Part shown: positions 16,178 to 56,651 of the stretch, one piece after another
Layout of the letters: each line of letters starts with the position of its first letter
Position numbering within the stretch: the stretch's first letter is position 1
Position numbers and translations under genes: made by a program
Notes under the pieces: generated by a model
Seen by the model: the letters and a program-made list of their open reading frames with translations, nothing else
What the model was told of the DNA's origin: nothing
The model's database searches: none
IMG/VR virus record: IMGVR_UViG_3300035498_000698
Span: 7,863 to 71,862 of that record
DNA length: 64,000 nucleotides
Direction: 5' to 3' (one strand)
From: a virus
Lineage: Duplodnaviria; Caudoviricetes

Positions 16178-16179
16178 AT

Positions 16180-16671: not shown

Positions 16672-16674
16672 TAT

Positions 16675-17282: not shown

Positions 17283-17335
17283 CCTCTTTATATATATTAT
17301 ATCAAAAATTTAATAAAAAATAAAGTTCCGATTTT

Positions 17336-17694: not shown

Positions 17695-17733
17695 ATCTTT
17701 AATTATTAAAAAGAGGCTATTTAGCTTCCTTTT

Positions 17734-19002: not shown

Positions 19003-19033
19003 ATTTAGTCCTCCTTTTGTTATTTAAAATTAA

Positions 19034-19282: not shown

Positions 19283-19310
19283 TTATTACCTCATATTCTT
19301 TCTACTCAAA

Positions 19311-19703
19311 TCAAAAATTAAACTTTTCTTCAAAAACTCTTTTATCTACTAAGACGTTGTTCCAATTTTTAATCTCGGTATATGGATGTTCCTTTTGCCA
19401 TACTTTAAGATCTTTTACAATAAAATGATCAATAATATCAAAAGAAAAGTGCCAATCAACATAAGAAAACCATGTCGCATAATCAAAATAAAAATCTTTA
19501 TAATATCCAGTTTTTTTATCATACATACGAATAATTACACGAAGAATACCATCAGAGTTGTCAAGGAATTTTTCCCATCGAGCTCCAATCTGTCGTGCTA
19601 CGAATCTACCTTGCCAAAGTTCATCAGTCTCTATAGCATGGTTATATTCTCTAATTTTTTTATTAAGTTTGCGCTGATATTTTTTACGCATTTTATCCAT
19701 CAT
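19311..19703 (-). CDS. hypothetical protein
   Basis: 130-aa ORF downstream of promoter 19736-19764. Confidence 0.6.
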   Translation of the reverse strand: MMDKMRKKYQRKLNKKIREYNHAIETDELWQGRFVARQIGARWEKFLDNSDGILRVIIRMYDKKTGYYKDFYFDYATWFSYVDWHFSFDIIDHFIVKDLKVWQKEHPYTEIKNWNNVLVDKRVFEEKFNF

Positions 19704-19760
19704 AGATATATCACCTTCCTTTTATTTATATAAATATTATATAATATTTTTAATAAAAAA

Positions 19761-19981
19761 TCAAGAAAATTCTTTATATCCTTCTAATTTTAATTCTGCT
19801 AAATCTGAAAAATCAAAAGTTCCTTCAAAATATTTTTCTTCAGCTTTTTCATCAAGATAATTCCAAAGACTATCATAATAATATTCCCAATTTATTACTC
19901 CTCCTTGACCAAGAGCAATAAATCTTTCCTTATTTCAAGCAAAATTAATAATTCTTCCTCTGAAATAATATAATTTTTCAT
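19761..19981 (-). pseudogene. frameshifted small gene (MKNYIISEEELL..LE / ERFIALGQGGVINWEYYYDSL..)
   Basis: 221 nt from ATG (coupled to the upstream TGA) to TGA, one base short of 74 codons; the two halves read as one protein after a single-base shift. Confidence 0.6.
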
Positions 19982-20787
19982 AATTTAGTAGGAACCTCAC
20001 TTTCCATAAAATCTGTTAATTCAACAGCATAATCGTTAAATAACATTAACCTGCGGCGGCCGTCTGTACGTGGATAGTTACGATATTGGTGATAATGACC
20101 CCAGCACCATGCGCGATAGTCAAGATTATATTCAATTCCGCCAAGATATCTTTCCATTGTTTTATCTACCATTGATTGATCTACAACAGATAAAAATAAA
20201 TCAGTTGGTTCAAACATAATTGGACAAGTATGTGAAAGAACTAAATCACAAGTCCAATTACTAGCTGTCAATAAAGAAAGTCCACGATTTCTCTCTCTTT
20301 CTGATAATTGTTCTTGTTCAAACCAACTAAATCCTTTTTGCAATCTATAAAATTTATCAATAGAATAAGCACCAGGAATTGTGAGGACTTTTAAAACATC
20401 TTTATTATAAGATTTATATGGAATTTCATAAAAAGTTACATAATCCATTGCATATTTAATATATGGATAGTCATTTTCTACCCAAACATATCCATTCCAA
20501 AATTTTTCTACATGCCAATTCTCTTGATGTTTTTCAGCAACAATACTAGGTCTTTCTTCATGATTTCCGCGTATAATAAAATATGTAAGTGGATATTTAC
20601 CTAATTTCTTTTTAAAATTTTCATCTCGGTGATTAAAAAAATAATTTGCGCCAAAATCTCCTAATACAATAAGTACATTTTCTGTGCTTTCTTGATCTTT
20701 ATATAAGGATGGATTCCGTTGACAAAAATTTTGAACTGGATGAAAATCTCCATGTAAGTCACCAATTAAATAAATTTTTTGTTCCAT
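19978..20787 (-). CDS. calcineurin-like metallophosphoesterase
   Basis: GDLHG, LGDFG, RGNHEER, SHTCP, GHYH. Confidence 0.9.
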   Translation of the reverse strand: MEQKIYLIGDLHGDFHPVQNFCQRNPSLYKDQESTENVLIVLGDFGANYFFNHRDENFKKKLGKYPLTYFIIRGNHEERPSIVAEKHQENWHVEKFWNGYVWVENDYPYIKYAMDYVTFYEIPYKSYNKDVLKVLTIPGAYSIDKFYRLQKGFSWFEQEQLSERERNRGLSLLTASNWTCDLVLSHTCPIMFEPTDLFLSVVDQSMVDKTMERYLGGIEYNLDYRAWCWGHYHQYRNYPRTDGRRRLMLFNDYAVELTDFMESEVPTKL

Positions 20788-20811
20788 TATTATTTTTCCT
20801 TTTCTTTTTTC

Positions 20812-21261
20812 TTATTTGCTTAAATATTCCATTACGACTTTATTAATTAATTTACCATCTGCTTTGCCTTTTAAAATTGGCATAATTAATTTCATAGCTT
20901 TGCCTTTATCAGATGGAGAATTAATCTCTGGATGATCTTTAAGAATATAATCTACTTCCTGTAGGATATCACATTCATCCATCATCTTTGGCGCAAAATC
21001 ATCAATATAACCCATACATACTTTATATGCTTCTAAAATATCAGGTCTATTTGCAGGACAAGTATCAATCTGCTCTTGGCAAATCTTCTTTGATTTAAGA
21101 ATTGCCACATCTACAATCTCTTCTGTGATATTATCTTTTGTACCTGCGGCGATCGCCATATTTTTCGCACAAGTAATCATATCTGCAATTACATTTTTTC
21201 TTATGCGATTTTTATCTTTCATAGATTTAACTAATTCATTTTGTAATGCTTTAAAAGTCAT
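20812..21261 (-). CDS. GatB/YqeY-domain protein
   Basis: LQNELVKSMKDK.. and DKGKAMKLIMPILKGKADGKLINKVV pattern. Confidence 0.85.
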   Translation of the reverse strand: MTFKALQNELVKSMKDKNRIRKNVIADMITCAKNMAIAAGTKDNITEEIVDVAILKSKKICQEQIDTCPANRPDILEAYKVCMGYIDDFAPKMMDECDILQEVDYILKDHPEINSPSDKGKAMKLIMPILKGKADGKLINKVVMEYLSK

Positions 21262-21483: not shown

Positions 21484-22518
21484 TTATAATGATAATGCTT
21501 CTGCTTTAAGCTCTGGTTGAGTAATTTTAATATAAGTGCCTTTCATTCCCATATTAGAAACAGTCGCAACTCCACATTCTTTTAATTTTACCATTAAGTT
21601 ATTATAAACAGGGCGGGAAATAGAATGTTTTGCTACTAATTTTGAAATAGTAATATTACCTTCATCATGGATTTCAGAAACAATAGAATAATAAGCTTTA
21701 GTTTCTGCGTTAGTTAAATTCTTAAAAAATTCTTCTTTAGAAGAAGCATCATGTTGAATTTCAACAAAAGAAGATTTAAGAATTTCTATTACTCCATTAT
21801 TAAGTGCGGCAATCGCGTCTTCATGGCACGGAGAGTCCACGTCCATGTATTTATCATTTAATTCTAAAACTTTCGATTTGAGCTCTTCGGCACGAATGAG
21901 CTTGGTTTCCGCATCCCATCCAAGTTTATCATATTTCATATTATATAAAAATTCATGCTTATCTTTTGAAATTAAACAATCTGAATAGTCTAATTCAGAA
22001 AAATAATCTTCAAGAAAATAATATAATCTATAAGCATTGTATAACTTTTTATCATCTGTTGGGTCTTGTCTTAATGTATGAAGTAATTGTCCACCAATAG
22101 AATTAATAGTTTTTTGTCTATCAAAATGAGCAATTTCTTCCCTATTATTTATAAAATAACTATCCCATAATTTTTTATATTTTGGATTAATTATAAAATA
22201 ATCTGTAAATAAAATCTCTAAATAGTTGATATTTTGCTTCATAAACATTTCTCTTAGAAGTCGAATATCTTTTACTTCAATATGTTCTCCGTTAGTTAGA
22301 TGCAGCTCTTTTGAGATTTCACTTTTATTTAAACAAAACTCTTCAAAAGTAGGAAGTATAATTATTTTACTATCTACATCGCTATGTTCGTTTGCCATAT
22401 TATAATTTTGAGATCCATATAGCCAGATTCCTAAAAATCTATCTTCATTATATCCTTGATTAGCCGCATATTCCCAGTGTTCTTTAAGTTTGTTTAAGAT
22501 TTTTTCTTTATTGGTCAT
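21484..22518 (-). CDS. Pol-beta-superfamily nucleotidyltransferase fused to a CodY-type C-terminal wHTH
   Basis: YGSQNY..SDVDSK NTase motif; C-terminal ISRPVYNNLMVKLKECGV..SNMGMKGTYIKI matches the CodY HTH (..SLGMKGTYIKV). Confidence 0.8.
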   Translation of the reverse strand: MTNKEKILNKLKEHWEYAANQGYNEDRFLGIWLYGSQNYNMANEHSDVDSKIIILPTFEEFCLNKSEISKELHLTNGEHIEVKDIRLLREMFMKQNINYLEILFTDYFIINPKYKKLWDSYFINNREEIAHFDRQKTINSIGGQLLHTLRQDPTDDKKLYNAYRLYYFLEDYFSELDYSDCLISKDKHEFLYNMKYDKLGWDAETKLIRAEELKSKVLELNDKYMDVDSPCHEDAIAALNNGVIEILKSSFVEIQHDASSKEEFFKNLTNAETKAYYSIVSEIHDEGNITISKLVAKHSISRPVYNNLMVKLKECGVATVSNMGMKGTYIKITQPELKAEALSL

Positions 22519-33688: not shown

Positions 33689-36600
33689 ATGGGAAAATAT
33701 AACGGTAATACAGAATTAATTTCTGGATTAAAACAAAAAAATAATGGCAATTTCCCTTTAATGGAAGCTAGCGCAATTCAAGTTGATGATGAAGGAACTC
33801 GATTAGATGAAAAACTTAAAAAGTTAGAAGATACGAGCGAAATTGTGAATGACGTTTTAGCTTCTGAAACAGTTTCTAAAATCCAAGCAAATATATCATC
33901 ACTTCAAAGTGGATTAGATGCTAATACAAAAGAAATCTCAGATATTGGAACCGAAGTATCTAATTTATCTGGTAAGATAGACGATTTAGATATAAAGGGT
34001 AATGAATACGATATCTCTTATCAAGATAATATTTTAACTTTATTAGAAAATGATGAAGTAAAAACTCAAGTTACCATTGCGGGCGGCGGTGGTACAGGAG
34101 AATCTACTACTATTACTATTGATAGAATTACTCCTTCTACAGCGGTAGCATTGCTTGGTGATGATGTTATTATTAAATATAAATTTACTAGCGTAGATTC
34201 AGTAGGAGATGATACTGGAACTGCAACCGCAACATGGACGGTAGGTGGAAGAACTGTTGCAATTGAGATTATTAATCAAGGTGAAAACTCTTTTAATTTA
34301 AAAGAATATTTATCCGCTGGAAATAATGATGTAAAAATTTCTATTACCGATAGCGCAGGTAGCATCGCAACTAAAAGATGGACTATTAATGCTATTGATA
34401 TGTATATTACATCTACTTTTAATGATACCCAAGTTTATGATGGCGATGTAGTATTTAGATATTCTCCATATGGTGATATTGAAAAAACAGTTCATTTTGT
34501 TTTAGATGATGAAGAACTTCCAACTGTTATAGTCTCAACCTCTGGAAGACAGCAATCTATTACAATTTCACATAAGCCGCATGGAAGCCATTCATTAAAA
34601 GTTTATTGTACTGCATTAATTAATGATGTAACTATTACAAGTAATACATTATATTTTGACATTATGTTTATTGATGAAGGTAATTCAACACCTATTATCA
34701 GATGCGCATACGATGGCTCTAATGCTAGTCAATATACTGCAAAAGTTATAAAATATTCTGTTTATACTCCAGGAAACTTAACTTCCAATGTAAGTTTATC
34801 TATTGATGATAATATAGTTTCTTCATTAGTTGTAGATAGAACAGAGCAATCATGGAACTATAAACCAAATGATTTTGGTGAAAAAGTTTTAAAAATTACT
34901 TGCGGAAGTGTAGAAAAAGTATTAAATGTAACAGTTGATAAATTCCCTTATGAAATTAGTCAAGTTACAGATGGCTTAGAATTTGACTTTAATCCAAATG
35001 GTAGAAGTAATAGTGATGAAAACTATACTGATTATCAATATGGTGATTATAAAATGTCAGTTTCAGATAATTTTGACTGGCAGAATGGTGGATGGAAAGT
35101 AGATAGTGATGGTAATTCTTACTTTTGTGTAAAAGCTGGAACTACAATGACTTTAGATTATCCACTTTTTGGTAGTGATGCTAAAACTTCTGGTAAGGAT
35201 TTTAAATTCATTTATAAGGCTACTTTATGTAAAGACTTTAATGCAAAAGTTATGGAGTGTCTTGTAAAAAATATTGGTGTTCAGGTCAATGCGCAAAACG
35301 CTATTCTTTCTGCAGGCGGAACTACTTTAGATGTTCCATATATTGAAGATAAATATATGGAATTAGAGTTCAACATTCAGCCAAGCTCGACATATAGTGA
35401 AATGATGGCTTTAATTGATGCTGACCCTAGTAAGATTGCGGTTTATTCAGAAACAGATAACTTCGATCAGAGAAGTCTAAATAATGGTGAATTTGTTCCT
35501 ATTGTTTTTGGTTCAGATGATTGCGATGTTTGGATTTATCGTTTCAAAGCATATAATAAACACTTAAATGATGATGAAATCATGGACAATAGAATTGCAG
35601 ACGCACCAGATTCTGCGGAAATGGCTAATAGATATTTAAGAAACTTAATTGTTAATGCTCAAGGCGAAGTTGATTATGACTTAATTTCTAAAGTATGTCC
35701 AGACCTAAGAGTTATTTTGATCACCTGTCCGCGATTCACAAAAGGTAAAAAAGATAAAGTAGCTGGATGTACGGTTCAACATATTTATACAAAAGGTGGA
35801 GCTAAGCACAATTGGACTGCGGAAAATGTTACTTTATCAGGCCAGGGAACTTCATCTGATAACTATGGCGATTCTTCAAGAAATATGGATATTGATTGTA
35901 CTAAAACAGTATTTAAATTCTCAGATAATACAGAGTCTTCTGTTTATAGCATGACTGATAATAGTATTGGAGAAGCTTATTTTAATATTAAAGTGAATGT
36001 AGCTTCATCTGAAAACGCTAATAACTCGAGATTCCAAGATGATTATCATACATATCAGCCATATTTAAGAGAGGCTCGACAGAAAGACTCAAGAGTAAGA
36101 GACACAATGGAATTTCATCCATGCGTTATCTTTGTTCAAGAAACGGATACTGGCGAAGCTACTCAGTTCTCAGATGGAAAGATGCATTTCTACTCTTGCG
36201 GAGATTTTGGTAACTCAAAGAAAAATCATACTGCTTTAGGAATGGAAACTGACAATCCATTAGAATGTATTGTTGAAATTGATAATAATACAGATGTAAT
36301 ATGTAGATTTAAATCTGATGACCTAAGTGAAGAAACTTGGGATGGTAAACACGCTATTGAATTTAGATATCCAAGTATTGATTCTTTAGAAGAAAGCGTT
36401 GTAAATATTCTAAAAGCAAATGTTCAAAGATTATGGACTTGGGTTGTTTCTACAGATGCGGACGCCGCAACTAATAGAGCATTAAATGAAACAGAATTAA
36501 AAGATGTTGCTAAATGGGGCAAGACCTACACAACGGATTCTGCTGAATATAGATTAGATAAATTCAAATATCAATTTGAAGATTATTTTATAAAAGATTC

Positions 36601-39600
36601 TATCTTATATCACTACTTATTTACAGAAAGACACTGCATGGTAGATAATAGAGCTAAGAATGTATTTATTCATACAAGTGATGGATTGCATTGGGATGCT
36701 ATTTTTGACTATGATAATGATACCGCGGATGGTAATGATAACGAGGGTGGATTGACTCTTGAGTATGGCTTGGAAGATATTGATAAAATTGGAGATAGAG
36801 ATGTATTTAATGCAGCTGATTCAGTTTTATGGGTAAATGTTAGAAAAACCATGTTTAATGATTTAAGAACTTTATATTTAGACCGAGAGAGTGCGGGCGC
36901 TTGGAGTGCAAGCCGCATCATTCAGAAGTTTTATGATTATCAATGGGTAAAACCAGAAAGACTTGAATTAGTAGATATGAGAAGAAAATATATTCGTCCA
37001 TATGAAACTAAAACATATGATTATGAAATTCCTGTAAACAGTACTCAAGCTTATCTTCCTATGCTATACGGAAGAAAAGAGCATCAGAGAAATAGATTTG
37101 AAACTTATGAAGAAAAATACATAGCTTCTAAATACACAGGTGGCGTAGCAACTCAAGATGTAGCTACTCTTAGAGCTTATGCAAGAGGAGATATTAAGGT
37201 AACTCCATATGCGGATATGTATGTAAATATCAAAGCTGGAAGCTTAGAATTTAATCAAAGAGCTAAGAAAGGTGAAGAGGTCACTTTCTCACTTCCATCA
37301 GATGCTATTTTAAATGATACTGAAACTTATATATATACTTCTTCTTTAATTCAAAAAGTAGGAGATTTATCTGCTTTGCGTCCTGGCTATTGTAATTTCT
37401 CTATGGCAAGCAAGCTACAAAGATTGCCAATTGGATCTGGAGATTCTAGTTATTCTAACTCTAATCTTACTAATCTTGATCTTAAGAGTAATGAATTATT
37501 AGAGTATTTGGATATTAGAAACTGCCCTAAATTCAGTATGGCGTTAAATCTAACAAATTGTACTAGATTAAAAGAAATTTATACAACAGGCACTAATTGT
37601 AGTGGTGTTGTTTTTGCAACGAATGGACTATTAGAAATTGCAGAATTAAATGCTATTCAAAGTTTAATTGTTAAAAAGTTAGGATATGTAAAAAAACTAT
37701 TTTTAGAATCATATGATAATGTTAATAGTTTAGTATATGAAAGCTGCCCTTCTATTGATAGTTTAGATTTAGTTAAAAAGTGTATTAATTTATCAAGAAT
37801 TAGAGCTACTGGAATTGATTGGCTTCTAGCAAATACAGATTTATTAAATAATATTTATAAAATGACAGGTATTGATGAAAATAACTCTAATACAAATAAA
37901 TCAGTACTTGCGGGTTCTGTAACAGTTCCAGCTATCAGACAGCAAGAGTTAGATAGATACACTGCCGCATGGACTAACTTAAAAATTAATTATGAAGATA
38001 TGGTAACTCAATATACCGTAACTTTTAAAAACTGGGACGATACAGTACTAACAACAGTATTTGTAGATGCGGGAGAGTCTTGTGAAGATCCTATTGAAAG
38101 CGGTCTTATAAATACTCCTACAAAAGAAAAGGATGTACAATATACTTACACTTTTAGAGAATGGGATGTAAATTTAAGTAATCCTGTTTTAACTAATATT
38201 ACTGTAAAAGCTTTATATGATAGTGAAATCAGAAAATATACAGTTCGTTGGTTAGATGAATTAAATCAAGCATGGAAAATTGTTACAGTTGATTATGGAA
38301 CATCTGTTGAATATGATAAAGAAAATCCTACTAGGGCGGCTAGTGGAATGACTTATTATTTATTTGATGGTTGGGATAAAGCAACGACTTTTATTGATAG
38401 AGACTTAGATGTAAAGGCAAAATGGCAATCTGGAATAATTCCAGCAATTGGACAGGTAGAGACTTATGAGCTGACTCCCGCGCAAATCTATGGTCTTGTT
38501 GATAAAGATTATATTCCAAACTATTTCGAAGATGCCGATTATATAAATGTTCAAATGGGTTATATGCCTACTTTTACAAATATAGAAGAACAGGTTTTAG
38601 TAAGTGAACCTTATATATTAAATGGAACTTCAACCTATATCAATACTGGAATTAAATTATTTGATGAAGATAGAAGTTTTACAATTGCTTTTGACTTTAC
38701 AATGGGATATAAAGCTAGTGGAAAAGGAACTATATTATCTTGTTATAATGAGTATTCAACCTCTGATCTAACTGTTGGCGGTTTTACCTTATCTTCTACT
38801 AATAATAGTGTTCCAACGTTTAAATGGGGACCAAATGCTTCTCAAACCATTAACTCTTATAAACCAACAGAAGATAATCAATATAGAGAAATGTGTGTAA
38901 TTAGACATATTAAAGGTGATAATAATATTTATTTATACACCAATGATAGATTTACAACAAATGATGTTGTAGAAACAATTTTAAAACATACTTTACAAAC
39001 TTCAATACCCAATGTTTTATCTATTGGCGCAGAAATTGAGTATAATGGAACGAAAATTAAGAATTATGCAACAGGAACTGTTAATTATGCGAAAATTTGG
39101 TTTGGTGATTTAGGAGAAGAAGAATGTAGAAAAATTTGTTCTTGGACATACGGGCTTCATAAATTTGAATATTGCGGAACTGAGCGCTATGAAGTTGTGG
39201 GCGCCGCAAGATATTCAAGTGGTTCTTTTGTTGCAAAGGAGCTTTTAGATGGCTTATATCCAATCCATTCAAATAGTAATAATACTGGCGGATGGAATAC
39301 AAGTGATATGAGAGAATGGCTAAATAAGAAAATGTATGCTGCTGTTGATCCTCTTTGGAAGCAATTAATTAAACAGGTACAAATTAAATCTATTAGAGGC
39401 GGTTCTTATTCAGAATCTGATGAAACAAAATCAGAAATTTTAACTTCTAGTGATTATTTATACATTCCTTCTATTGCAGAAGTTGATAGCACTTATAATA
39501 AATCTCCTTATTCTCTTGAAAAGAAAGAGGAAGATGGACCATATTCAATGTTTACAAATGATGCTTCAAGAATTAAATATATTATTAATACAGAAACTCC

Positions 39601-39763
39601 AAACTTCTATTATTTAAGAACACCTTCTCTTACAGATTCTTCTTATAACGCGCATGTAACCTCAAAAGGTAAAACAGGCTTAAGATATAATCAAGATGAG
39701 ACTGTTGACATGTGGAATACGACATCTACTCCTGGCGGAATTTTAGTTGCATTCTCAATTTAA
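33689..39763 (+). CDS. 2024-aa multidomain virion protein (Ig-like, lectin-like, CotH-like, LRR, B-repeat, DUF6273-like C-terminus)
   Basis: VDNRAKN..W..IFDYDNDT (CotH-like); LEYLDIRNC..LNLTNCTRLKEI (LRR); YTVTFKNWD..YTF..WD (B-repeat); GGWNTSDMREWLN..YIPSIAEV..YYLRTP. Confidence 0.6.
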   Translation: MGKYNGNTELISGLKQKNNGNFPLMEASAIQVDDEGTRLDEKLKKLEDTSEIVNDVLASETVSKIQANISSLQSGLDANTKEISDIGTEVSNLSGKIDDLDIKGNEYDISYQDNILTLLENDEVKTQVTIAGGGGTGESTTITIDRITPSTAVALLGDDVIIKYKFTSVDSVGDDTGTATATWTVGGRTVAIEIINQGENSFNLKEYLSAGNNDVKISITDSAGSIATKRWTINAIDMYITSTFNDTQVYDGDVVFRYSPYGDIEKTVHFVLDDEELPTVIVSTSGRQQSITISHKPHGSHSLKVYCTALINDVTITSNTLYFDIMFIDEGNSTPIIRCAYDGSNASQYTAKVIKYSVYTPGNLTSNVSLSIDDNIVSSLVVDRTEQSWNYKPNDFGEKVLKITCGSVEKVLNVTVDKFPYEISQVTDGLEFDFNPNGRSNSDENYTDYQYGDYKMSVSDNFDWQNGGWKVDSDGNSYFCVKAGTTMTLDYPLFGSDAKTSGKDFKFIYKATLCKDFNAKVMECLVKNIGVQVNAQNAILSAGGTTLDVPYIEDKYMELEFNIQPSSTYSEMMALIDADPSKIAVYSETDNFDQRSLNNGEFVPIVFGSDDCDVWIYRFKAYNKHLNDDEIMDNRIADAPDSAEMANRYLRNLIVNAQGEVDYDLISKVCPDLRVILITCPRFTKGKKDKVAGCTVQHIYTKGGAKHNWTAENVTLSGQGTSSDNYGDSSRNMDIDCTKTVFKFSDNTESSVYSMTDNSIGEAYFNIKVNVASSENANNSRFQDDYHTYQPYLREARQKDSRVRDTMEFHPCVIFVQETDTGEATQFSDGKMHFYSCGDFGNSKKNHTALGMETDNPLECIVEIDNNTDVICRFKSDDLSEETWDGKHAIEFRYPSIDSLEESVVNILKANVQRLWTWVVSTDADAATNRALNETELKDVAKWGKTYTTDSAEYRLDKFKYQFEDYFIKDSILYHYLFTERHCMVDNRAKNVFIHTSDGLHWDAIFDYDNDTADGNDNEGGLTLEYGLEDIDKIGDRDVFNAADSVLWVNVRKTMFNDLRTLYLDRESAGAWSASRIIQKFYDYQWVKPERLELVDMRRKYIRPYETKTYDYEIPVNSTQAYLPMLYGRKEHQRNRFETYEEKYIASKYTGGVATQDVATLRAYARGDIKVTPYADMYVNIKAGSLEFNQRAKKGEEVTFSLPSDAILNDTETYIYTSSLIQKVGDLSALRPGYCNFSMASKLQRLPIGSGDSSYSNSNLTNLDLKSNELLEYLDIRNCPKFSMALNLTNCTRLKEIYTTGTNCSGVVFATNGLLEIAELNAIQSLIVKKLGYVKKLFLESYDNVNSLVYESCPSIDSLDLVKKCINLSRIRATGIDWLLANTDLLNNIYKMTGIDENNSNTNKSVLAGSVTVPAIRQQELDRYTAAWTNLKINYEDMVTQYTVTFKNWDDTVLTTVFVDAGESCEDPIESGLINTPTKEKDVQYTYTFREWDVNLSNPVLTNITVKALYDSEIRKYTVRWLDELNQAWKIVTVDYGTSVEYDKENPTRAASGMTYYLFDGWDKATTFIDRDLDVKAKWQSGIIPAIGQVETYELTPAQIYGLVDKDYIPNYFEDADYINVQMGYMPTFTNIEEQVLVSEPYILNGTSTYINTGIKLFDEDRSFTIAFDFTMGYKASGKGTILSCYNEYSTSDLTVGGFTLSSTNNSVPTFKWGPNASQTINSYKPTEDNQYREMCVIRHIKGDNNIYLYTNDRFTTNDVVETILKHTLQTSIPNVLSIGAEIEYNGTKIKNYATGTVNYAKIWFGDLGEEECRKICSWTYGLHKFEYCGTERYEVVGAARYSSGSFVAKELLDGLYPIHSNSNNTGGWNTSDMREWLNKKMYAAVDPLWKQLIKQVQIKSIRGGSYSESDETKSEILTSSDYLYIPSIAEVDSTYNKSPYSLEKKEEDGPYSMFTNDASRIKYIINTETPNFYYLRTPSLTDSSYNAHVTSKGKTGLRYNQDETVDMWNTTSTPGGILVAFSI

Positions 39764-40091: not shown

Positions 40092-40124
40092 AAAATGGGA
40101 AGTGATTAATTTCACTTCCCATTT
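40092..40124. terminator. bidirectional terminator between convergent blocks
   Basis: AAATGGGAAGTGA/TCACTTCCCATTT hairpin with A- and T-runs on either side. Confidence 0.8.
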
Positions 40125-40129
40125 AATTT

Positions 40130-41620
40130 TTATTTTACAGCTGCATATCTCTCTGATGTAATAGCTTCAAGGCAAAGATCCCATCCAGTTTTACCAGTGA
40201 GAATCTGTTTAAAGATACTAGGAGATGCGCCGCTTACAAATGAAACATTTGGACCAGCATCAAGGATAGTGTCTTTAGAAGCATTAACATTCCAATAAAC
40301 TAACTTAGGCATTTTTAATCCACAAGCTTCCCATTCTTTTCTAATCCATTCCATTTCAGTACACGTCCTGCTAGAGTCCCAATAACCATATGACATACTA
40401 TCAATCTGCATATCAGAAATAATAACAACAGTCTCTAATCTGTCTTCTGGTTTTGTTTTTAAACTAACATTTTTTAAAAGATCAAAAGTAGCTTTAATAT
40501 TGGTGTTTTCACATAAATTAGTCTTATAAATTCTACGAACTTTATCTACAAAGTCTACTCCCTGAATATGAATTAACTGCGGTTTTGAAGAGAAACTAAT
40601 ATAGTGATCTTTAAAAGGTCCACCAACTCGTTCTGCACAATACATTCCAAGACCAATAGCCATATTAATTGGAGCAGATGCCGAAGTCCCAGTCATACTT
40701 CCCGATGTGTCTACAACGCACATCATTTTGCAAGGTTTTCCTTCAAGATAATCTTCAAGTCCATTCCAATATTTTTCAAGCATTGCTCTGTCTATATCAG
40801 AAAGGTAATTAAAACGATAACTCCATTTATCTCCGCGTTCAGTAGCTTTATAGACTACTTCATAAGGATAAAGAGTTTTAGCGTTAACTGTAATATTTTC
40901 ATCTTTTGCAAAAGTTTCATATTTTTTAGCAATAATATCTCTACGAGCAAAAGCGTTCTTATAGATTAATCCAGCCTTTGATGGAATCTTATCAAATTCA
41001 ATTTCATCCCATCTATTTGCAGACATAAGTCTTTCAAGTACATTAATTCTCTTACGCAGTTCAGAAAGAACTTTTCTATACTGTCTGTGCGTAAAGCCAA
41101 GATATGATCTTACAATATTTGCTAATCTTTTAGTCTCTGCGGAAGATGCATTCTCAGATGGAAGCCATTTTGCAAGCAGAGATGGAGTTTTGCACTGAAC
41201 ATCAAGAGCTAATTGTTCCTTAATAAAGCCAAGGGCATGTTTTTCTAGCGGAGTGCCAATACAAGAGTAAAGTACATCGTCCCATCTACGATAAGTAGGA
41301 ATGTTCTCTAAGTTGCGGGCTGCCGCCTCAGGATGCTTATTAGCCAGCCATTTGAAACATGTACGAAAGAATCTACGCTCTCCCTGACCGCCGCGACAAT
41401 CTGCAATATAAAATAAACATTTAAGCGCTAAGGTCTCATCCTCTTCAAATGCATTTTTAAAAAGTAGAATACAATCTTCATCACTTCTTTTGCGATAACT
41501 AGCGCCCAATGCAAAAAGATCATATACCGCAGAATTGGTAGTTTTATGAGCCAGCGCGCCATTTTCAGTATAAGTAAAGTTAGTTGCGTTTTTAAGATTT
41601 GTCATAAATGAGTTTTCCAT
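40130..41620 (-). CDS. DUF2828-family protein (helical N-domain + vWA; Ro60/TROVE-like architecture inferred)
   Basis: TENGALAHKTT, DCRGGQGERRFFR, RRWDD, LAKWLPSE; MIDAS residues DTSGS, NTN, ISDMQ; LVYWNV. Confidence 0.8.
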   Translation of the reverse strand: MENSFMTNLKNATNFTYTENGALAHKTTNSAVYDLFALGASYRKRSDEDCILLFKNAFEEDETLALKCLFYIADCRGGQGERRFFRTCFKWLANKHPEAAARNLENIPTYRRWDDVLYSCIGTPLEKHALGFIKEQLALDVQCKTPSLLAKWLPSENASSAETKRLANIVRSYLGFTHRQYRKVLSELRKRINVLERLMSANRWDEIEFDKIPSKAGLIYKNAFARRDIIAKKYETFAKDENITVNAKTLYPYEVVYKATERGDKWSYRFNYLSDIDRAMLEKYWNGLEDYLEGKPCKMMCVVDTSGSMTGTSASAPINMAIGLGMYCAERVGGPFKDHYISFSSKPQLIHIQGVDFVDKVRRIYKTNLCENTNIKATFDLLKNVSLKTKPEDRLETVVIISDMQIDSMSYGYWDSSRTCTEMEWIRKEWEACGLKMPKLVYWNVNASKDTILDAGPNVSFVSGASPSIFKQILTGKTGWDLCLEAITSERYAAVK

Positions 41621-41671
41621 ATTCCCTTAATCTCCTTTTAATCTTTTAGATTTGGTAATTTTCATTACCTA

Positions 41672-41798
41672 ATAATGCTCTTTTGGCAGAGGAGGTCTCT
41701 TCTGCGCTCAACCTTTTTCTCCAGGCTTCTTGTTTAGCTAAGACAAGGTTCCTTTTGATTATTACGGACTTATACCGCCCCTCCCAAAAGAGCATTAT
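41672..41798 (-). ncRNA. structured RNA between a promoter and the DUF2828 start
   Basis: 15-bp perfect terminal stem ATAATGCTCTTTTGG/CCAAAAGAGCATTAT with internal hairpins; promoter-like boxes at 41816-41842. Confidence 0.6.
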
Positions 41799-41821
41799 CT
41801 TTTCTTTATATAAATACTATA

Positions 41822-42094
41822 TCATAATTTTTTATTTTTCAAGCTATCCATTAATTCTTGATAAATAATTGTTTCTACTTTATCTAAATCAAAATCAGAT
41901 TCAATAATTTTAATTGTATTTTGAGATCCCATTACTTCAAAAATTAGCATAGGATTTTCCTGTGTTGCTCTTTGCATTGCATAGTTCATAAAATTTTGAA
42001 GAAAATAAATAGCATCATCAGAATTTTCAAAAAGAATAATTTTTCCTTTATTTTGGAAGTAATAATTTTTACTTAAATCTTTAATACATAACAT
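41822..42094 (-). CDS. hypothetical protein
   Basis: 90-aa ORF with SD. Confidence 0.55.
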   Translation of the reverse strand: MLCIKDLSKNYYFQNKGKIILFENSDDAIYFLQNFMNYAMQRATQENPMLIFEVMGSQNTIKIIESDFDLDKVETIIYQELMDSLKNKKL

Positions 42095-42170
42095 ATTTTA
42101 ATCCCTTTCTCAAAATAAGTTAATTTATTTATTACATTTTCTATTTTTCAATAGGAAAGGATGATGTGAA

Positions 42171-42353
42171 ATGAACAATAATCAAAACATTAATGATTTA
42201 TTTTTAATGATTGCTTTATATAATAGTTGCTTAGGACTTTATAATAGTTCATTAAATACAACAGAAGAAGATAATCAAAAAGCAATCATGGATAAATTGA
42301 ATAAAATTGATGCGGATTTACAAAAAATAAAAGCGGCTATTCATATAGAATAG
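42171..42353 (+). CDS. hypothetical protein
   Basis: 60-aa ORF with SD AGGA, opposite strand to its neighbours. Confidence 0.5.
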   Translation: MNNNQNINDLFLMIALYNSCLGLYNSSLNTTEEDNQKAIMDKLNKIDADLQKIKAAIHIE

Positions 42354-42367
42354 TCATTTTTTTATTA

Positions 42368-42450
42368 AGTGGATAGAGAGATTTGAACTCTCGCGCATAT
42401 AGCTTACTGGTTTTGCAGACCAGCTCCATAAGCCACTCGGACATATCCAC
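42368..42450 (-). tRNA. tRNA-Cys(GCA) with long variable arm
   Basis: CUGGU-CUGCAAA-ACCAG anticodon arm, U73, ~14-nt variable region. Confidence 0.85.
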
Positions 42451-42460
42451 ATTAAATTAC

Positions 42461-42542
42461 AAGAGACAAAATTTTTTACACTTTATAAATTGGATTTAAA
42501 ATAAAGAATCTTGTTATTATTAAAAATTGCTGTGCGTCTCTT
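42461..42542 (-). ncRNA. ACWGCAA-family RNA 1
   Basis: Terminal stem AAGAGAC/GUCUCUU then G-CACAGCAA. Confidence 0.6.
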
Positions 42543-42548
42543 ATTAAA

Positions 42549-42618
42549 TCTCCTAAAGAGGATTCGAACCTCTATCCTCTTAGATCAATCAGCGCTCTAA
42601 CCATTAAGCTATTAGGAG
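42549..42618 (-). tRNA. tRNA-like gene with defective anticodon arm
   Basis: Intact acceptor, D and T arms; only 20 nt between D and T arms and no 5-bp anticodon stem. Confidence 0.65.
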
Positions 42619-42678
42619 TGAAGTCTACGGCAATTCCGATCTCCGTAGACTTTTAGGAAAGGGATTTTGATAATGGAC

Positions 42679-42838
42679 TAGACAAGAAAGATATTTATAA
42701 TCTATCGTTGTTAATTTATTCTAAATATCTCAAGAAATGAATAAATTTTTCTACGCTCTAAAAAGAGAAATCTTTTAATATCATCATAGATAGAATTAAT
42801 TGTTATTATACTTATACAATTTGCAGTTATCTTGTCTA
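42679..42838 (-). ncRNA. ACWGCAA-family RNA 2 (160 nt, multibranch)
   Basis: Terminal stem UAGACAAGA/UCUUGUCUA then UAACUGCAA; several internal hairpins. Confidence 0.6.
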
Positions 42839-42839
42839 A

Positions 42840-42911
42840 AGCACCATAAGGTAGTCGAAACCTCGTCCGATGATTGGAAGTCATCTATTCTATCCGTTGA
42901 ACTAATGGTGC
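42840..42911 (-). tRNA. tRNA-Gly(UCC)
   Basis: GAUGA-CUUCCAA-UCAUC; full cloverleaf, U73. Confidence 0.9.
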
Positions 42912-42915
42912 AATA

Positions 42916-43035
42916 TTTAACAACTAAAGATTAAGCGAATTTATATTTCATAATCACTTTAAATGCGGAGGCTAACTCTAATCTCCCTCACATACTTAAT
43001 CAAACTATTAGAGCAAGTTTTATTCAGTTGTTAAA
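42916..43035 (-). ncRNA. terminal-stem structured RNA
   Basis: 10-bp terminal IR UUUAACAACU/AGUUGUUAAA with nested GAUUAAG/CUUAAUC and AUGUGAGG/CCUCCGCAU helices. Confidence 0.5.
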
Positions 43036-43106
43036 AGCTCCTATCCGGAATCGAACCAGAAAGAAGAGGTTACAAAGCTCTCATTTTACCGTTAAATTAT
43101 AGGAGC
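43036..43106 (-). tRNA. tRNA-Thr(UGU)
   Basis: Loop UUUGUAA; cloverleaf with one anticodon-stem mismatch. Confidence 0.85.
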
Positions 43107-43131
43107 AAAAGATGCTAAAGCATCTAATATA

Positions 43132-43428
43132 TTATTTATCAGTTGTTGCTTTCTTTAAACAAGACTTAGCTTCTTTAATTAAAGTTTTACTTTTAAGAAG
43201 TTTTTTATTATATCCATTCAATAAGAACTGTTTAGAAGTTTCCTGCGCGGTTGCCGCTTCTTCAGTTTCTTTGATAAGATCTTCCTCTTTTAATTTCTTA
43301 GCATTTTTAATAGCATTTCTAAATTTCTGTTCTCTCTTGTAAACATCATATTTATTTTTAATATTTCCAAATCCCAATGCATTAGTACCTACAAGTGCCC
43401 AGCCTTTTGACATTCTTAAATCTTTCAT
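43132..43428 (-). CDS. hypothetical basic protein
   Basis: 98-aa ORF after promoter 43467-43495. Confidence 0.55.
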   Translation of the reverse strand: MKDLRMSKGWALVGTNALGFGNIKNKYDVYKREQKFRNAIKNAKKLKEEDLIKETEEAATAQETSKQFLLNGYNKKLLKSKTLIKEAKSCLKKATTDK

Positions 43429-43466
43429 TATAAAATTCCCTTTCTTGTTTTTCTTTTGATATAATA

Positions 43467-43495
43467 ATTATATCATAAAATTTTTAAAAAATCAA
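43467..43495 (-). promoter_or_regulatory. promoter TTGATT-N17-TATAAT (duplicated at 47088-47116, near-copy at 44759-44787)
   Basis: 45 nt identical at 43451-43495 and 47072-47116. Confidence 0.85.
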
Positions 43496-43505
43496 ATTTT
43501 TTAAA

Positions 43506-43577
43506 TATCTCTACAAGGAATCGAACCTTGATTAAATGATTAGAAATCATTTGTTCTTTCCATTAAACTATAAAGAT
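43506..43577 (-). tRNA. tRNA-Arg(UCU)
   Basis: AAUGA-UUUCUAA-UCAUU. Confidence 0.9.
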
Positions 43578-43581
43578 AAAA

Positions 43582-43680
43582 AATCTCTAACTTGGCGGGG
43601 GATAAAGTCCATACCCCATACTTTAAATTACATCGACATTTTGCCTAATAACCTAATTATTACCTTTCACGCTAGAGATT
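43582..43680 (-). ncRNA. terminal-stem structured RNA
   Basis: AAUCUCUAGC/GUUAGAGAUU terminal stem plus internal hairpins. Confidence 0.45.
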
Positions 43681-43683
43681 TAA

Positions 43684-43755
43684 TACTCCATATAGGACTT
43701 GAACCTACATTACTAGTTCCGTAGACTAGTGCTCTTTCCATTAAGCTAATGGAGC
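43684..43755 (-). tRNA. tRNA-Arg(ACG)
   Basis: CUAGU-CUACGGA-ACUAG. Confidence 0.9.
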
Positions 43756-44029
43756 AAAATGAGAACTTAACCTAAGCTTTTTTGTCGTTAGAAAACATTA
43801 TCTTGTTCTCAAGGTGGGTGGATTAAAGATCTTAATATCTAAACGCTGTCCGCCAGCAGCTCAGCTTTTATCGTATCTAACTAAGTAACGGAATTATAAC
43901 GCTTTTTCTGCGGATGGTGTCGATATATTCGCAAAGAGACTAGCCTCACTCTTTAAAAGGTTCGCGAACTCGATCAGAGTAACTTTCCATCATTATATTT
44001 TTATTAAATTGGTTTCCAACCAATTAAAC

Positions 44030-44088
44030 TGGCGGTCTAGGATTTGAACCTTCAGAGGGTCCAGTACTACCAGCCTACACCAACCGCC
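44030..44088 (-). tRNA. 59-nt tRNA-like element lacking an anticodon arm
   Basis: GGCGGUU/GACCGCC acceptor, GGUUCAAAUCC T-loop, D-loop-like GGUAG. Confidence 0.45.
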
Positions 44089-44095
44089 AATAACT

Positions 44096-44177
44096 AGAGG
44101 CAAATGGATTCGAACCATTTAAAAAATTTTTCATCATAAATTTTTATTTACCTTTTTTAAAATTGCTGTATGCCTCT
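44096..44177 (-). ncRNA. ACWGCAA-family RNA 3 (acceptor stem + T arm hybrid)
   Basis: AGAGGCA/UGCCUCU 7-bp stem, UACAGCAA, and AAUGG-UUCGAAU-CCAUU T arm abutting the 3' strand. Confidence 0.65.
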
Positions 44178-44180
44178 TAA

Positions 44181-44255
44181 CAGCCCCTACTGGATTCGAA
44201 CCAGTCCAACACACGGAGTCAAAGTCCGCGGCCCTTCCATCTAGGCTAAGGAGCT
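44181..44255 (-). tRNA. tRNA-Gln(UUG)
   Basis: GCGGA-CUUUGAC-UCCGU. Confidence 0.9.
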
Positions 44256-44261
44256 AAAAAC

Positions 44262-44329
44262 AAAGCACATTTTGTTAGTTTTATTTGAATAATAGTCAAA
44301 TCCTAATAAATTTTTGCTGTATGTGCTTT
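44262..44329 (-). ncRNA. ACWGCAA-family RNA 4
   Basis: AAAGCACAU/AUGUGCUUU terminal stem then ACAGCAA. Confidence 0.6.
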
Positions 44330-44380
44330 TCATTTATAGCATAAAATTTTTTAAAAAATCAATTAATTTTGATTTTTAAA

Positions 44381-44451
44381 GGTGACTAAAGGGAATTGAA
44401 CCCTTATATGCGGATCCACAAACCGCCGTTCTACCATTAAACTATAGTCAC
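44381..44451 (-). tRNA. tRNA-His(GUG)
   Basis: GUG anticodon, C73; no encoded G-1. Confidence 0.9.
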
Positions 44452-44453
44452 AA

Positions 44454-44528
44454 TCGGAATGACAGGATTTGAACCTGCAAGTCTCTTGAACCCAAATCAA
44501 GCGCGATCCCAAATTACGCTACATTCCG
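44454..44528 (-). tRNA. tRNA-Pro(UGG)
   Basis: CUUGA-UUUGGGU-UCAAG. Confidence 0.9.
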
Positions 44529-44534
44529 AAACAC

Positions 44535-44642
44535 AAGACGCCTTGTTTCTTTTGCTCTACCAATTGAGCTATTTTCAATTTTATAATAACTTGAAAAACA
44601 GGAATCGAACCCGCAACTTTCTATTTTTGCAGTGTGCGTCTT
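44535..44642 (-). ncRNA. ACWGCAA-family RNA 5: circularly permuted tRNA mimic (YrlA-like Y RNA)
   Basis: AAGACGC/GCGUCUU stem, ACACUGCAA, then T arm, closed 7-bp acceptor stem, UA, D arm in that order. Confidence 0.75.
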
Positions 44643-44659
44643 TTAGTATTTTTAATAAC

Positions 44660-44743
44660 AAGACAGAATTATTAATTTTATTAGCGTTTACCTAAATTAA
44701 ATGTTAATATAATTAAATATTTGATTTTTGCTGTGTCTGTCTT
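44660..44743 (-). ncRNA. ACWGCAA-family RNA 6
   Basis: AAGACAGA/UCUGUCUU terminal stem then CACAGCAA; first element after promoter 44759-44787. Confidence 0.6.
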
Positions 44744-47060: not shown

Positions 47061-47289
47061 AAGAAATCTTTTTCTTTTGATATAATAATTATATCATAAA
47101 ATTTTTAAAAAATCAATAAAATATAAATTGACTTGTTTCTAAAAGTAAATCTTCTAAGTATAATATATATAAAGATAATTTTTTTCATAACAGAAAACTA
47201 TCAAAAAACTGAGAAAGAGGAAAGAATGTCTTGTTTTATTATTTTAAAAAAGGTACAAGACTTATAAAACCTACAAAATTATAATTTTC

Positions 47290-48331: not shown

Positions 48332-49145
48332 CTGGCTAGACAGGACTTGAACCTGCAACAACGCGGTTAATCAAAAATTAAGATTTGAACTTAAACCAAT
48401 GCCCATTGTTCATCAGTAAAACTATTTATATCCTTTTTTCTACTTGGTAAATTTTCAGTCTTACACCATTTAGTAATTGCTTTATCACTAACTCCATACT
48501 GCTCCCCTATTTTTGTAAAAGGAACTGTCCTAATAAGCTGTTTTAAAGTATCTCTATCTGGTCTTTCAACTATTCGAGATTGTTTTTTAGAACAATCTTC
48601 ACATAAACCACTTTTAGAATATCTTGTAATTTTTTTACCACAATTTGAACAAAAATATATTTTTTTATCTGATTGTTGTCCTTTGCTTTCTCTTAATTGA
48701 TTAGCAATATTTTCATCATAAACTTTATATTTATATAATTCTTCTTTAGAAAAAAGTTTATCGTGAATTTCTCTATGACAATTCGCACAAACTAAAATAC
48801 ATTTTTTTACTTCTGCTAAATCTTTTTCCAAATCATGGCAAGTTCCATTAGAAGAAATACCATATAATTTTTCTTCAGCATTGATATGATGAAATTCTAA
48901 AGCTGAATTAGTCTTATGATAACCACATATATTACACTGATTACCACATACTTTAATCAAATTATCTTTTCTTCTTCTTCTATAATTACTTGTTTCTGTT
49001 GCACCCATATTTTCACTCCTTTATTTTTCATATATAATATGAAAAATAAACCAATATGGTTAATTACTGTTGTCCAATGTTCATTTATGCTACTTAACAC
49101 CATTTTCGCACAGCCGCGTGCTACTACCAACTGAGCTACATCCCA
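48332..49145 (-). tRNA. tRNA-Asn(GUU) interrupted in the anticodon by a 740-nt HNH-encoding insert
   Basis: 5' half 49110-49145 and 3' half 48332-48369 join to ACGCGG-CUGUUAA-CCGCGU; G73. Confidence 0.75.
48391..49008 (-). CDS. HNH homing endonuclease within tRNA-Asn
   Basis: CNICG..ALEFHH..CILVCANCHREIH; zinc ribbon; C-terminal HTH. Confidence 0.85.
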   Translation of the reverse strand: MGATETSNYRRRRKDNLIKVCGNQCNICGYHKTNSALEFHHINAEEKLYGISSNGTCHDLEKDLAEVKKCILVCANCHREIHDKLFSKEELYKYKVYDENIANQLRESKGQQSDKKIYFCSNCGKKITRYSKSGLCEDCSKKQSRIVERPDRDTLKQLIRTVPFTKIGEQYGVSDKAITKWCKTENLPSRKKDINSFTDEQWALV

Positions 49146-52091: not shown

Positions 52092-52208
52092 AAAGAAGGG
52101 TGGGGCTCGAACCCACGACAATCAGCTTGCCCAAAAAAGATTGCAGTTACAGGTTATTTCTAATCTAATTTTAATTGGCTGATGCTCTCCCAGCTGAGCT
52201 ACCTTCTT
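52092..52208 (-). ncRNA. tRNA scaffold whose anticodon loop is replaced by a 51-nt insert containing UAACUGCAA
   Basis: AAGAAGG/CCUUCUU acceptor, canonical D and T arms, UCAGC/GCUGA stem closing 52127-52177. Confidence 0.75.
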
Positions 52209-55786: not shown

Positions 55787-55873
55787 TTAAAATCTATCCT
55801 CCTTTCTGCGGATTCTATCCATTTTTTGTCTACGATTGTCAGTTCTAGCAGGCTTTCCGCCAGGTAACTTTTT
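55787..55873 (-). pseudogene. orphan 3' fragment homologous to the end of gene 56652..56849
   Basis: Reads KKLPGGKPARTDNRRQKMDRIRRKEDRF* vs SPLRHGRPAREDTRKQRMERIKRKEKFDY*. Confidence 0.75.
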
Positions 55874-56579
55874 ATATCCATTGCCAATGGTATCCACCTG
55901 CACTTTGTCTTTTTCCGTTACAGACTCTTCCTATTGAAGAAGAATCTATACCAGTACACCTTTCAGCCTCTTTTGCAGAATCATATTCAATATTAGTTTC
56001 TATACATAAAACCTTAGATTTAGCTCTTTTCTGTTTTTTTATAACGATTTCTTCTTTTCCTGTATAATCTTCAATATATTTCCATAATAAAGCATTACCA
56101 TTTTTATCTTTACCTGCTGTCTTTATTTTCCCAGAACAGCAATCTCCTATGTGTTCTGCACCAGTTGCTTTTTTTGCAGAAGTTTCACTATCATAAATAA
56201 CACCAGTATTTAAACAAACAACTGACCTGCCTAATGTTTTAATATTTGATAATCTTATTTTTTCTTTATGTTCTTCTGTTAAATGTTGATTATTTCCACC
56301 TTCTCTTATATTATAACCATTTTGTATAGAATTATATTTTTCAATCCAATACCGTTCTCTTTCATTTAATTCATCATCATTAAGTCCACATTCTAAGATT
56401 TTATGTTCAAAATTATCCCACCCATATTTTTGAATAGCTCTATAAAAACAAGTGCATGTAGAATATAAGCTCCCTCCGCCCCATCTATGTTGTAATGTTT
56501 GAATTGTTTGTCCAACATATGCTTTTCCATTGATTTTATTAATGTGGACATAAATAATACCTTTACGATTTCTATTCAT
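55872..56579 (-). mobile_element. freestanding GIY-YIG homing endonuclease with NUMOD-type repeats
   Basis: GIIYVHIN..AYVGQT..RW, GYNI; two V.C..T...YDS...A repeats; start moved to 56579 by SD. Confidence 0.85.
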
Positions 56580-56651
56580 ATATATATAATATCTCCTTTT
56601 TATTGATATTATATATGAAATTAATGTCAAACCTGTTAAACAAGTTTGACA

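Follow-up and report, generated by a model that had tools for sequence, protein, structure and literature searches.

A Ro60-like DUF2828 protein and a linked family of handle RNAs in a phage tRNA array resemble a Ro60/Y-RNA particle tied to tRNA repair

We describe a putative ribonucleoprotein system in a 64-kb stretch of viral DNA (the window) taken from the 71.9-kb IMG/VR virus contig IMGVR_UViG_3300035498_000698, which is estimated to be 47% complete and has a G+C content of 31%. The window encodes a DUF2828 protein with the predicted fold of Ro60, and upstream of its gene lie six putative small RNAs interleaved with tRNA genes. Each of these RNAs joins its two ends in a short helix, the clamp, whose 5' strand is followed by the motif ACAGCAA or ACUGCAA (ACWGCAA). 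Clamp and motif make up what we call the handle, and the variable interior is the cargo. The system has the appearance of a new Ro60/Y-RNA branch with a link to tRNA repair. The fold of the protein, a covarying RNA family, co-occurrence of RNA and gene in both search directions together with synteny, and a link to RtcB or RNA end-healing enzymes all point this way. We assign a probability of roughly 0.7 to the reading in which the DUF2828 protein and the handle RNAs form a Ro60/Y-RNA-type particle, with the protein binding the handle. A pairing of this kind was the central inference of an initial annotation of this DNA, and it is supported because the tests of fold and of co-distribution both came out in its favor. 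A megablast search against GenBank phages found no match to the region. In the literature we found no published description of the pairing: none of the papers found to mention DUF2828 concerns this system, and nothing on it was found in work on phage Ro60 and anti-defence.

The DUF2828 protein and six handle RNAs

The protein, of 496 amino acids (aa), is encoded on the minus strand (40130-41620), downstream of the tRNA array and on the same strand. It matches Pfam DUF2828 and DUF7788 as well as PHROG 850, 'RNA-binding protein' (E 2e-114). As first annotated, a helical part, here of about 290 aa, lies ahead of a C-terminal von Willebrand factor A (vWA) domain with an intact MIDAS (metal ion-dependent adhesion site; DxSxS...T...D), and the MIDAS residues D304, S306, S308, T373 and D403 are invariant in 114 sequences. 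Further invariant residues are R76, G78, G80, E81, R82, R112, D114, D115, K151 and W152. In an AlphaFold2 model built from an alignment of 114 diverse relatives (predicted local distance difference test score 95.6, predicted template modelling score 0.94), a ring of HEAT-like helical repeats is followed by the vWA domain, as in the Ro60/TROVE family. When this predicted structure was compared with the PDB using Foldseek, the 11 best matches were all Ro60/TROVE proteins, with more than 510 aligned columns each, comprising Xenopus Ro60, human Ro60, Deinococcus Rsr and the Ro60 of Thermus phage phiLo. This agrees with the proposal that DUF2828 is a divergent Ro-like protein. A PDB search with the single sequence returned nothing relevant, and a profile search picked up TROVE proteins no better than E 0.42, in the MIDAS stretch, so that the relation to Ro60 is visible solely at the level of the modelled fold. 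Some homologues are already annotated 'Ro-like RNA binding protein'. DUF2828-type proteins are encoded in 694 of 50,697 GenBank phage records (1.4%), including Felixounavirus, Listeria, Staphylococcus and Enterococcus phages, KVP40-like vibriophages and Mycobacterium phages such as Gardann, and an ESM Atlas look-up returned DUF2828 clusters only, mostly viral.

The tRNA array spans 42.3-52.3 kb on the minus strand, with 18 ARAGORN calls and 18 Rfam tRNA matches. Sequence reading and folding place six non-tRNA elements (E1-E6) on this strand, 0.8-3.1 kb upstream of the Ro60-like gene, at the positions first annotated, with E2 now read as 42678-42839. A helix of 7-10 bp, rather than the 7-9 bp originally described, joins both ends of each element, and in all six the motif follows the 5' clamp strand after 0-2 nt: ACAGCAA in E1, E3, E4 and E6, and ACUGCAA in E2 and E5. 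The stems had been described as differing in sequence while staying paired. They are indeed paired, and they covary, but they also have common ends, 5' AAGR... and 3' ...YCUU, then G. Spacing to the adjoining tRNAs is 0-10 nt throughout.

E1 (42461-42542) lies 6 nt past one tRNA and 10 nt ahead of the next; its clamp AAGAGAC/GUCUCUU is followed by gc, ACAGCAA and an AU-rich cargo. E2, a long element of 162 nt directly after tRNA-Gly, has a 10-bp clamp (UUAGACAAGA/UCUUGUCUAG), ua and ACUGCAA. E3 (44096-44177; clamp AGAGGCA/UGCCUCU, u, ACAGCAA) has tRNAs 2 nt away on both sides and carries a T arm, AAUGG-UUCGAAU-CCAUU, that abuts its 3' clamp strand. The short E4 (44262-44329) begins with a 9-bp clamp (AAAGCACAU/AUGUGCUUU) directly followed by ACAGCAA, and its cargo is a hairpin with a 6-bp stem and a 7-nt anticodon-like loop, CUAUUAU. 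In E5 (44535-44642), the clamp AAGACGC/GCGUCUU, ac and ACUGCAA precede a T arm, an acceptor-like hairpin and a D arm. E6 (44660-44743) has an 8-bp clamp (AAGACAGA/UCUGUCUU), c and ACAGCAA. We ran a covariance model of the handle (R1), for which E2 and E5 are too long, on the whole window with filters off. Its only matches, all inside the array and at E <= 0.013, were E4 (59.6 bits; a row of the training alignment), E6 (35.8 bits, E 3.6e-5), E1 (34 bits, E 9e-5) and E3 (23.9 bits, E 0.013). Rfam has no match to E1-E4 or E6, and none even at E <= 10 to a 96-nt piece around E4. The 2.5-kb stretch that holds the elements contains six motifs, all six with a clamp; 1000 dinucleotide-preserving shuffles of it gave means of 0.20 motifs and 0.05 motif-plus-clamp elements (maximum 2), which rules out a chance origin.

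A seventh copy of the motif had been placed within a tRNA scaffold. The 117-nt tRNA-like gene at 52092-52208 (minus strand; Rfam tRNA, 48.4 bits) has an insert of about 44 nt in its anticodon loop and is read by ARAGORN's intron option as tRNA-Ala(ggc) with a 44-nt intron. ACUGCAA does occur in this insert (52141-52147), but it has no adjoining clamp and no R1 match, and it is therefore not a member of the family. Two further oddities of the array lie on the same strand: a 94-nt ARAGORN 'tRNA-Gln(ctg)' at 44000-44093, without an Rfam tRNA match, which resembles a partial tRNA mimic (acceptor stem, D arm and the T-loop motif GGUUCAAAUCC), and a tRNA at 42549-42618 that has a two-base anticodon call (6-nt loop) yet scores 52 bits in Rfam.

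Covariation of the handle and co-occurrence with the DUF2828 gene

We retrieved 80 related viral loci via the protein, which together with the window make 81 loci. A pattern scan of the gene strand found 417 ACWGCAA motifs, 246 of them with an adjoining clamp of at least 7 bp, against 206 motifs, 36 of them clamped, on the opposite strand. The 81 loci hold 224 distinct elements of 50-250 nt, with up to 12 per locus; ACAGCAA is present in 84% of these and a G follows the clamp in 76%. A suggested resemblance of ACUGCAA to a Cys anticodon loop is rejected, ACAGCAA being the main form of the motif. Among the tRNAs and handle RNAs of related-phage arrays there are also ROOL RNA (338.8 bits) and transfer-messenger RNA-like genes (loci L028, 3912-4516 and 6946-7256, and L013, 7851-7930).

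For covariation, the alignment comprised 41 short elements, drawn from gut phages of low GC content and from phages of Bacillus, Listeria, Escherichia and Mycobacterium. All clamp pairs have changed on both sides, and the first seven are paired in about 95% of rows or more; because only elements with a perfect clamp of 7 bp or more entered the first set, this percentage is in part built in, and the strand, shuffle and slide controls weigh more. The covariation score of the clamp was 0.642, compared to 0.219 when shuffled (0/500 shuffles reached 0.642) and at most 0.18 with slid partners. These controls, together with the covariance-model searches, are the independent evidence for the family. 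Phages whose proteins share only 28-40% identity have kept ACAGCAA unaltered. The motif does not vary across phages of Actinobacteria, Firmicutes and Proteobacteria, nor across bacterial genomes, while the clamps do, with compensatory changes.

Handle RNAs and the DUF2828 gene occur together whichever of the two is used as the starting point, as expected from the initial annotation. R1 found handle RNAs in all five complete genomes of distant cultured DUF2828 phages that we searched (705 kb: Mycobacterium Gardann, Bacillus vB_BcoS-136, Listeria P61, Escherichia HY02, which is a Felixounavirus, and Vibrio VH1_2019). All 13 matches are on the gene strand and 12 lie within about 3 kb of the gene, with the Vibrio match about 10 kb upstream. 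Gardann and HY02 have their matches immediately downstream of the gene, P61 immediately upstream, and vB_BcoS-136 within a tRNA array just upstream. Five control phages (1.22 Mb), namely T4 and T5, which have large tRNA arrays and no Ro60, and Bxz1, CcrColossus and G, which have a TROVE-type Ro60, gave no R1 match at E <= 0.1. The controls were also searched with a protein profile (A1), with handle-positive viral records as its positive control; T4 has neither a DUF2828 gene nor handle RNAs by profile A1 and model R1. In 80 loci from prokaryote genome assemblies, retrieved via the protein with a 25-row alignment, all 152 R1 matches (E <= 1) are on the gene strand and none on the opposite strand, most of them within 1.5 kb upstream of the gene. 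The pattern scan of the same loci gave 201 clamped motifs on the gene strand, 146 of them within 2 kb upstream, versus 20 on the opposite strand.

The reverse search was blind to the protein. A 16-nt handle pattern was searched in IMG/VR and returned 110 loci, 63 with a true, clamped handle and 47 that are chance matches. A DUF2828 open reading frame (ORF) is visible in the short fetched piece in 15 of the 63 true-handle loci, on the same strand in 15/15, and in 1 of the 47 clampless chance matches. When ten further handle-positive records were searched in full, nine proved to encode a full-length DUF2828 protein, among them 7/7 of the records at least 90% complete, which brings the combined tally to 24 of 25 handle-bearing viral records (15 via the fetched piece, 10 searched whole). 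None of five chance-match records searched whole encodes the protein, and the background frequency of the gene in GenBank phage records is 1.4%.

tRNA-like cargos, putative transcription units and the RNA-repair context

The interiors of the six RNAs had been taken to be unrelated, and this holds only in part: E5 has T and D arms and a YrlA match, E3 a T arm and E4 an anticodon-like hairpin. E5 matches the Rfam YrlA family (RF02553) over its full length (36.1 bits, E 5.7e-5; the gathering score of 69 is not reached), and E5-like relatives in other loci score 33.6-33.8 bits, also under the gathering score. Aligned with 15 relatives, one of them from Gardann, E5 yields a consensus of clamp, T arm, acceptor-like stem and D arm in which 18 of 22 pairs stay paired through double changes. 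We therefore regard E5 as a YrlA-type tRNA mimic mounted on an ACAGCAA handle, in place of the Ro-binding stem of YrlA. In Gardann, an annotated 'tRNA-Asn' (L081 5537-5607; 42089-42159 of the record) overlaps the middle handle RNA, which has the clamp UGGACUCC, the motif UACAGUAA and a YrlA-like module; this 'tRNA-Asn' is probably a mis-annotated Y-like RNA.

Other cargos copy smaller pieces of tRNA, or all of it. Of 223 family interiors, 97 contain a hairpin whose stem is 5 bp or longer and whose 7-nt loop fits YU-NNN-R-N, compared to 13-21 in shuffles and 43 in the reverse complement. These loops are either T-loops (UUCGAAU and similar) or anticodon-like, the commonest of the latter being CUUUUAA, which is tRNA-Lys-like. 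Some handles in related phages enclose a complete, high-scoring tRNA (L018 6962-7063, L013 7266-7376 and L028 769-879); in these the clamp pairs an ACAGCAA-bearing leader with a trailer, and in L018 the handle surrounds the tRNA at 6981-7052.

A promoter cassette of about 40 nt (TTGATTTTTTAAAAATTTTATGATATAAT...) occurs four times nearly verbatim along the array of the window, on the minus strand. P1 (44759-44787; TTGATT, 17 nt, TG-TATAAT), found by promoter scan, is predicted to drive E6, the first gene downstream of it, followed by E5, tRNA-Pro and tRNA-His. Near-identical P1-like cassettes lie at 47088-47116 and 43467-43495. The variant P2 (44333-44362; TTGATT, 18 nt, TATAAA) falls under the threshold of the scan and was read from the sequence; judging from gene order it would drive E4, tRNA-Gln and E3, and transcription from it is predicted to begin at the first clamp bases of E4. 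The cassettes thus appear to divide the array into units with separate promoters. A terminator-like hairpin (42335-42355, minus strand) ends the tRNA and handle-RNA array; two small ORFs and the Ro60-like gene lie downstream of it, and a bidirectional terminator-like hairpin (40093-40124), a 13-bp stem and then a T run, lies just 3' of that gene. Facing the gene is a 2024-aa ORF (33689-39763, plus strand) whose sole Pfam match is a C-terminal DUF6273. Genes for homing endonucleases, HNH and GIY-YIG-type, lie within or beside the array (48391-49008 and 55872-56630, both minus strand).

The DUF2828 gene is also linked to RNA repair. In 33 of the 80 prokaryote-genome loci, its neighbor on the same strand is an RtcB homologue. 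On the Oscillibacter valericigenes chromosome RtcB comes immediately after the gene, and in Listeria phage P61 it lies 1.3 kb downstream. This arrangement resembles the rsr-yrlBA-rtcBA RNA-repair operon of Salmonella (PMC7790460). RtcB was found in none of the 80 related viral loci and not in the window. PHROG and Pfam matches identify in the window an RNA end-healing and sealing cluster on the minus strand (15626-21261), with a metallophosphoesterase (15626-16177), a P-loop kinase (AAA_33; 16180-16671), an RNA ligase with a PHA02142 OB domain (17734-19002), a second phosphoesterase (19978-20787) and a YqeY-like protein (20812-21261). A nucleotidyltransferase gene (21484-22518, minus strand) lies just beyond the cluster and a PhoH-like ATPase near it (13726-14958). 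Phage T4 uses end-healing and sealing enzymes (polynucleotide kinase/phosphatase and RNA ligase) against anticodon nucleases. As in T4-type tRNA repair, kinase, phosphoesterases and RNA ligase are here in one cluster, alongside a large tRNA set, and the many family cargos that copy anticodon loops suit the same theme. Unlike T4, this phage has handle RNAs and a DUF2828 gene, and a role of the handle RNAs in repair may be envisaged.

Comparison with Ro60/Y-RNA particles and alternative readings

We propose that a divergent Ro60-fold protein (DUF2828 and DUF7788) and its own class of partner RNAs would together form a phage Ro60/Y-RNA-type ribonucleoprotein. The six RNAs would be co-transcribed with tRNAs from repeated sigma-70-type promoters, and because they lie so close to the flanking tRNAs they are probably cut out by tRNA-processing enzymes. 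Each would then present a constant handle, a 7-bp clamp (consensus AAGRC.../...GYCUU, then G) with a presumably single-stranded ACAGCAA or ACUGCAA, and a variable cargo that is often a piece of tRNA, such as the permuted T/D module of E5, the T arm of E3 or the anticodon-arm-like hairpin of E4. The handle may dock on the Ro60-like ring much as the conserved stem of a Y RNA docks on Ro60, and the cargo may recruit or decoy tRNA-acting enzymes, leading to tRNA repair or protection during infection. Within this proposal, tRNA repair, protection or decoying would be the most likely function.

Among known systems, Ro60 (Rsr) with its Y RNAs, above all bacterial and phage YrlA, comes closest. Y RNAs lie beside TROVE-annotated Ro60 genes, including in 22 phages, and have a GNCGAAN0-1G motif (Chen et al. 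2014, PMC4201824), and the Ro60 of Thermus phage phiLo binds two CGAA-motif Y-like RNAs, Yrl1/2 (PMC12135203). As in these systems, the protein modelled here is a helical ring with a MIDAS-bearing vWA domain, and the small RNAs are encoded within a few kb, about 4 kb or less, on the same strand. As in Y RNA and YrlA, both ends come together in a terminal stem whose 5' side bears a conserved motif, which here too would be the site of protein binding. Like YrlA, at least one RNA per genome has a permuted tRNA-like T/D module (E5 in the window, with its class in 15 other loci), and the linkage of DUF2828 to RtcB in bacteria parallels that of bacterial Ro60. The system also has features of its own. 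Unlike Ro60/Y-RNA loci, DUF2828 loci hold up to 12 RNAs, interleaved with tRNAs, and the cargos range from simple hairpins to whole tRNAs. The YrlA scores, at 34-36 bits, stay well short of the gathering score of 69.

A second close match, in the design of the handle, comes from eukaryotes. Class I RNAs of dictyostelids consist of a short stem joining the ends, a conserved single-stranded 11-nt motif (CCTTACAGCAA) and a variable interior (Kjellin et al. 2021, PMC7919456); they read GUUGAC-CUU-ACAGCAA...GUCAAC-UG, with a short conserved 3' tail (supplement of PMC7919456). They are encoded in many gene copies, are 42-65 nt long, have their own promoter, the Dictyostelium upstream sequence element (DUSE), and are reported to be unique to Dictyostelia (PMC7919456). 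No connection between them and a DUF2828 protein has been published. The stem, motif and variable-interior design is common to both families, as is the ACAGCAA core. The handle RNAs differ from the Class I motif (CCUUACAGCAA) in its first four positions and in clamp sequence. They are also longer (68-162 nt) than these eukaryotic RNAs, and they appear to be under bacterial-type promoters in a phage rather than a DUSE about 60 nt upstream. Judged from sequence, the likeness in design is real, with a motif too short to judge common descent.

Several observations weigh against a Ro60/Y-RNA-type particle. Unlike Ro60, the protein has no match to Pfam TROVE (PF05731), DUF2828 and DUF7788 being its sole matches at E <= 0.01, and it is only 9-18% identical to solved Ro60s; given the Ro60 fold of the model, we therefore take it to have a Ro60 architecture in a family that sequence methods keep apart. 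The handle is ACAGCAA after a 7-bp clamp and not the GNCGAAN0-1G or CGAA of Y RNAs; as already reported in the initial annotation, GNCGAAN0-1G does not occur on the array strand (41.6-53 kb). Whole tRNAs inside handles would also fit pre-tRNA handling instead of a stable Y-RNA-like particle. Both the viral and the prokaryote locus sets were picked via the protein, so that the independence of RNA and protein is tested only by the control phages and the protein-blind reverse search. Finally, the only known direct binder of Class I RNAs is Rnp1A, a protein with an RNA recognition motif (RRM; PMC7919456).

We put forward a wider version of the Ro60/Y-RNA reading only tentatively, and consider it less likely than not. 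It holds that the handle and the DUF2828 ring could be one ancient ribonucleoprotein found in phages, bacteria and eukaryotes, with the Class I RNAs as eukaryotic members that have a DUF2828 partner. By displaying tRNA pieces (anticodon arms, T arms or whole tRNAs), the phage particle would mend or protect tRNAs, or act as a decoy for host anticodon nucleases, in concert with RtcB or kinase-plus-ligase repair enzymes.

The case of Rnp1A is what would be expected if the RNAs and the ring shared one pathway but another molecule read the handle, be it an RRM-type protein, RtcB, an RNA ligase or some host protein, with the ring instead binding the cargo or the ends of damaged RNA. Misfolded RNAs, too, are bound by Ro60 via its central hole, going by the titles of PDB entries 2i91 and 9nep, and genome neighborhood alone cannot tell which molecule contacts which. 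However, DUF2828 is the only constant partner that we found, handle RNAs are present in the window and the related viral loci though RtcB is absent from them, and an ACAGCAA that stays unchanged next to such diverged proteins is expected for a site read by a conserved protein. We consider another reader unlikely. More improbable still is that the handle is a leader-trailer pairing signal for the processing, folding or stability of tRNA-array transcripts, with DUF2828 nearby merely through the tRNA arrays. The closeness of the elements to tRNAs and the relatives that surround whole tRNAs, as in L018, would suit such a signal, yet the gene has handles beside it where a tRNA array is small or absent, in Gardann and on bacterial chromosomes such as that of O. 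valericigenes, and the large tRNA arrays of T4 and T5 have no handles. That the elements are functionless, either degenerate tRNA genes or small mobile repeats bearing terminal inverted repeats, has in its favor the tRNA pieces in several of them and the homing endonuclease genes in the array region, but it is very hard to reconcile with compensatory change in the clamp around an invariant ACAGCAA across phages and bacterial genomes, an absolute strand bias in the prokaryote loci (152 to 0) and what appear to be promoters of their own.

Ro60/Y-RNA particles have been described in animals, in about 5% of bacteria and in a small number of phages. Phages with a DUF2828-type protein are much more numerous, which would enlarge the Ro60 world. 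If these proteins bind handle RNAs, that world also gains a defined seven-letter recognition motif that can be tested in laboratory phage-host pairs. Given the handle design shared with Class I RNAs, a DUF2828 protein would be a candidate partner in Dictyostelium. These particles may have a role in the fight between phages and bacterial defence nucleases over tRNAs, to judge from their tRNA-like cargos, the association with RtcB and the phage's genes for end healing and ligation.

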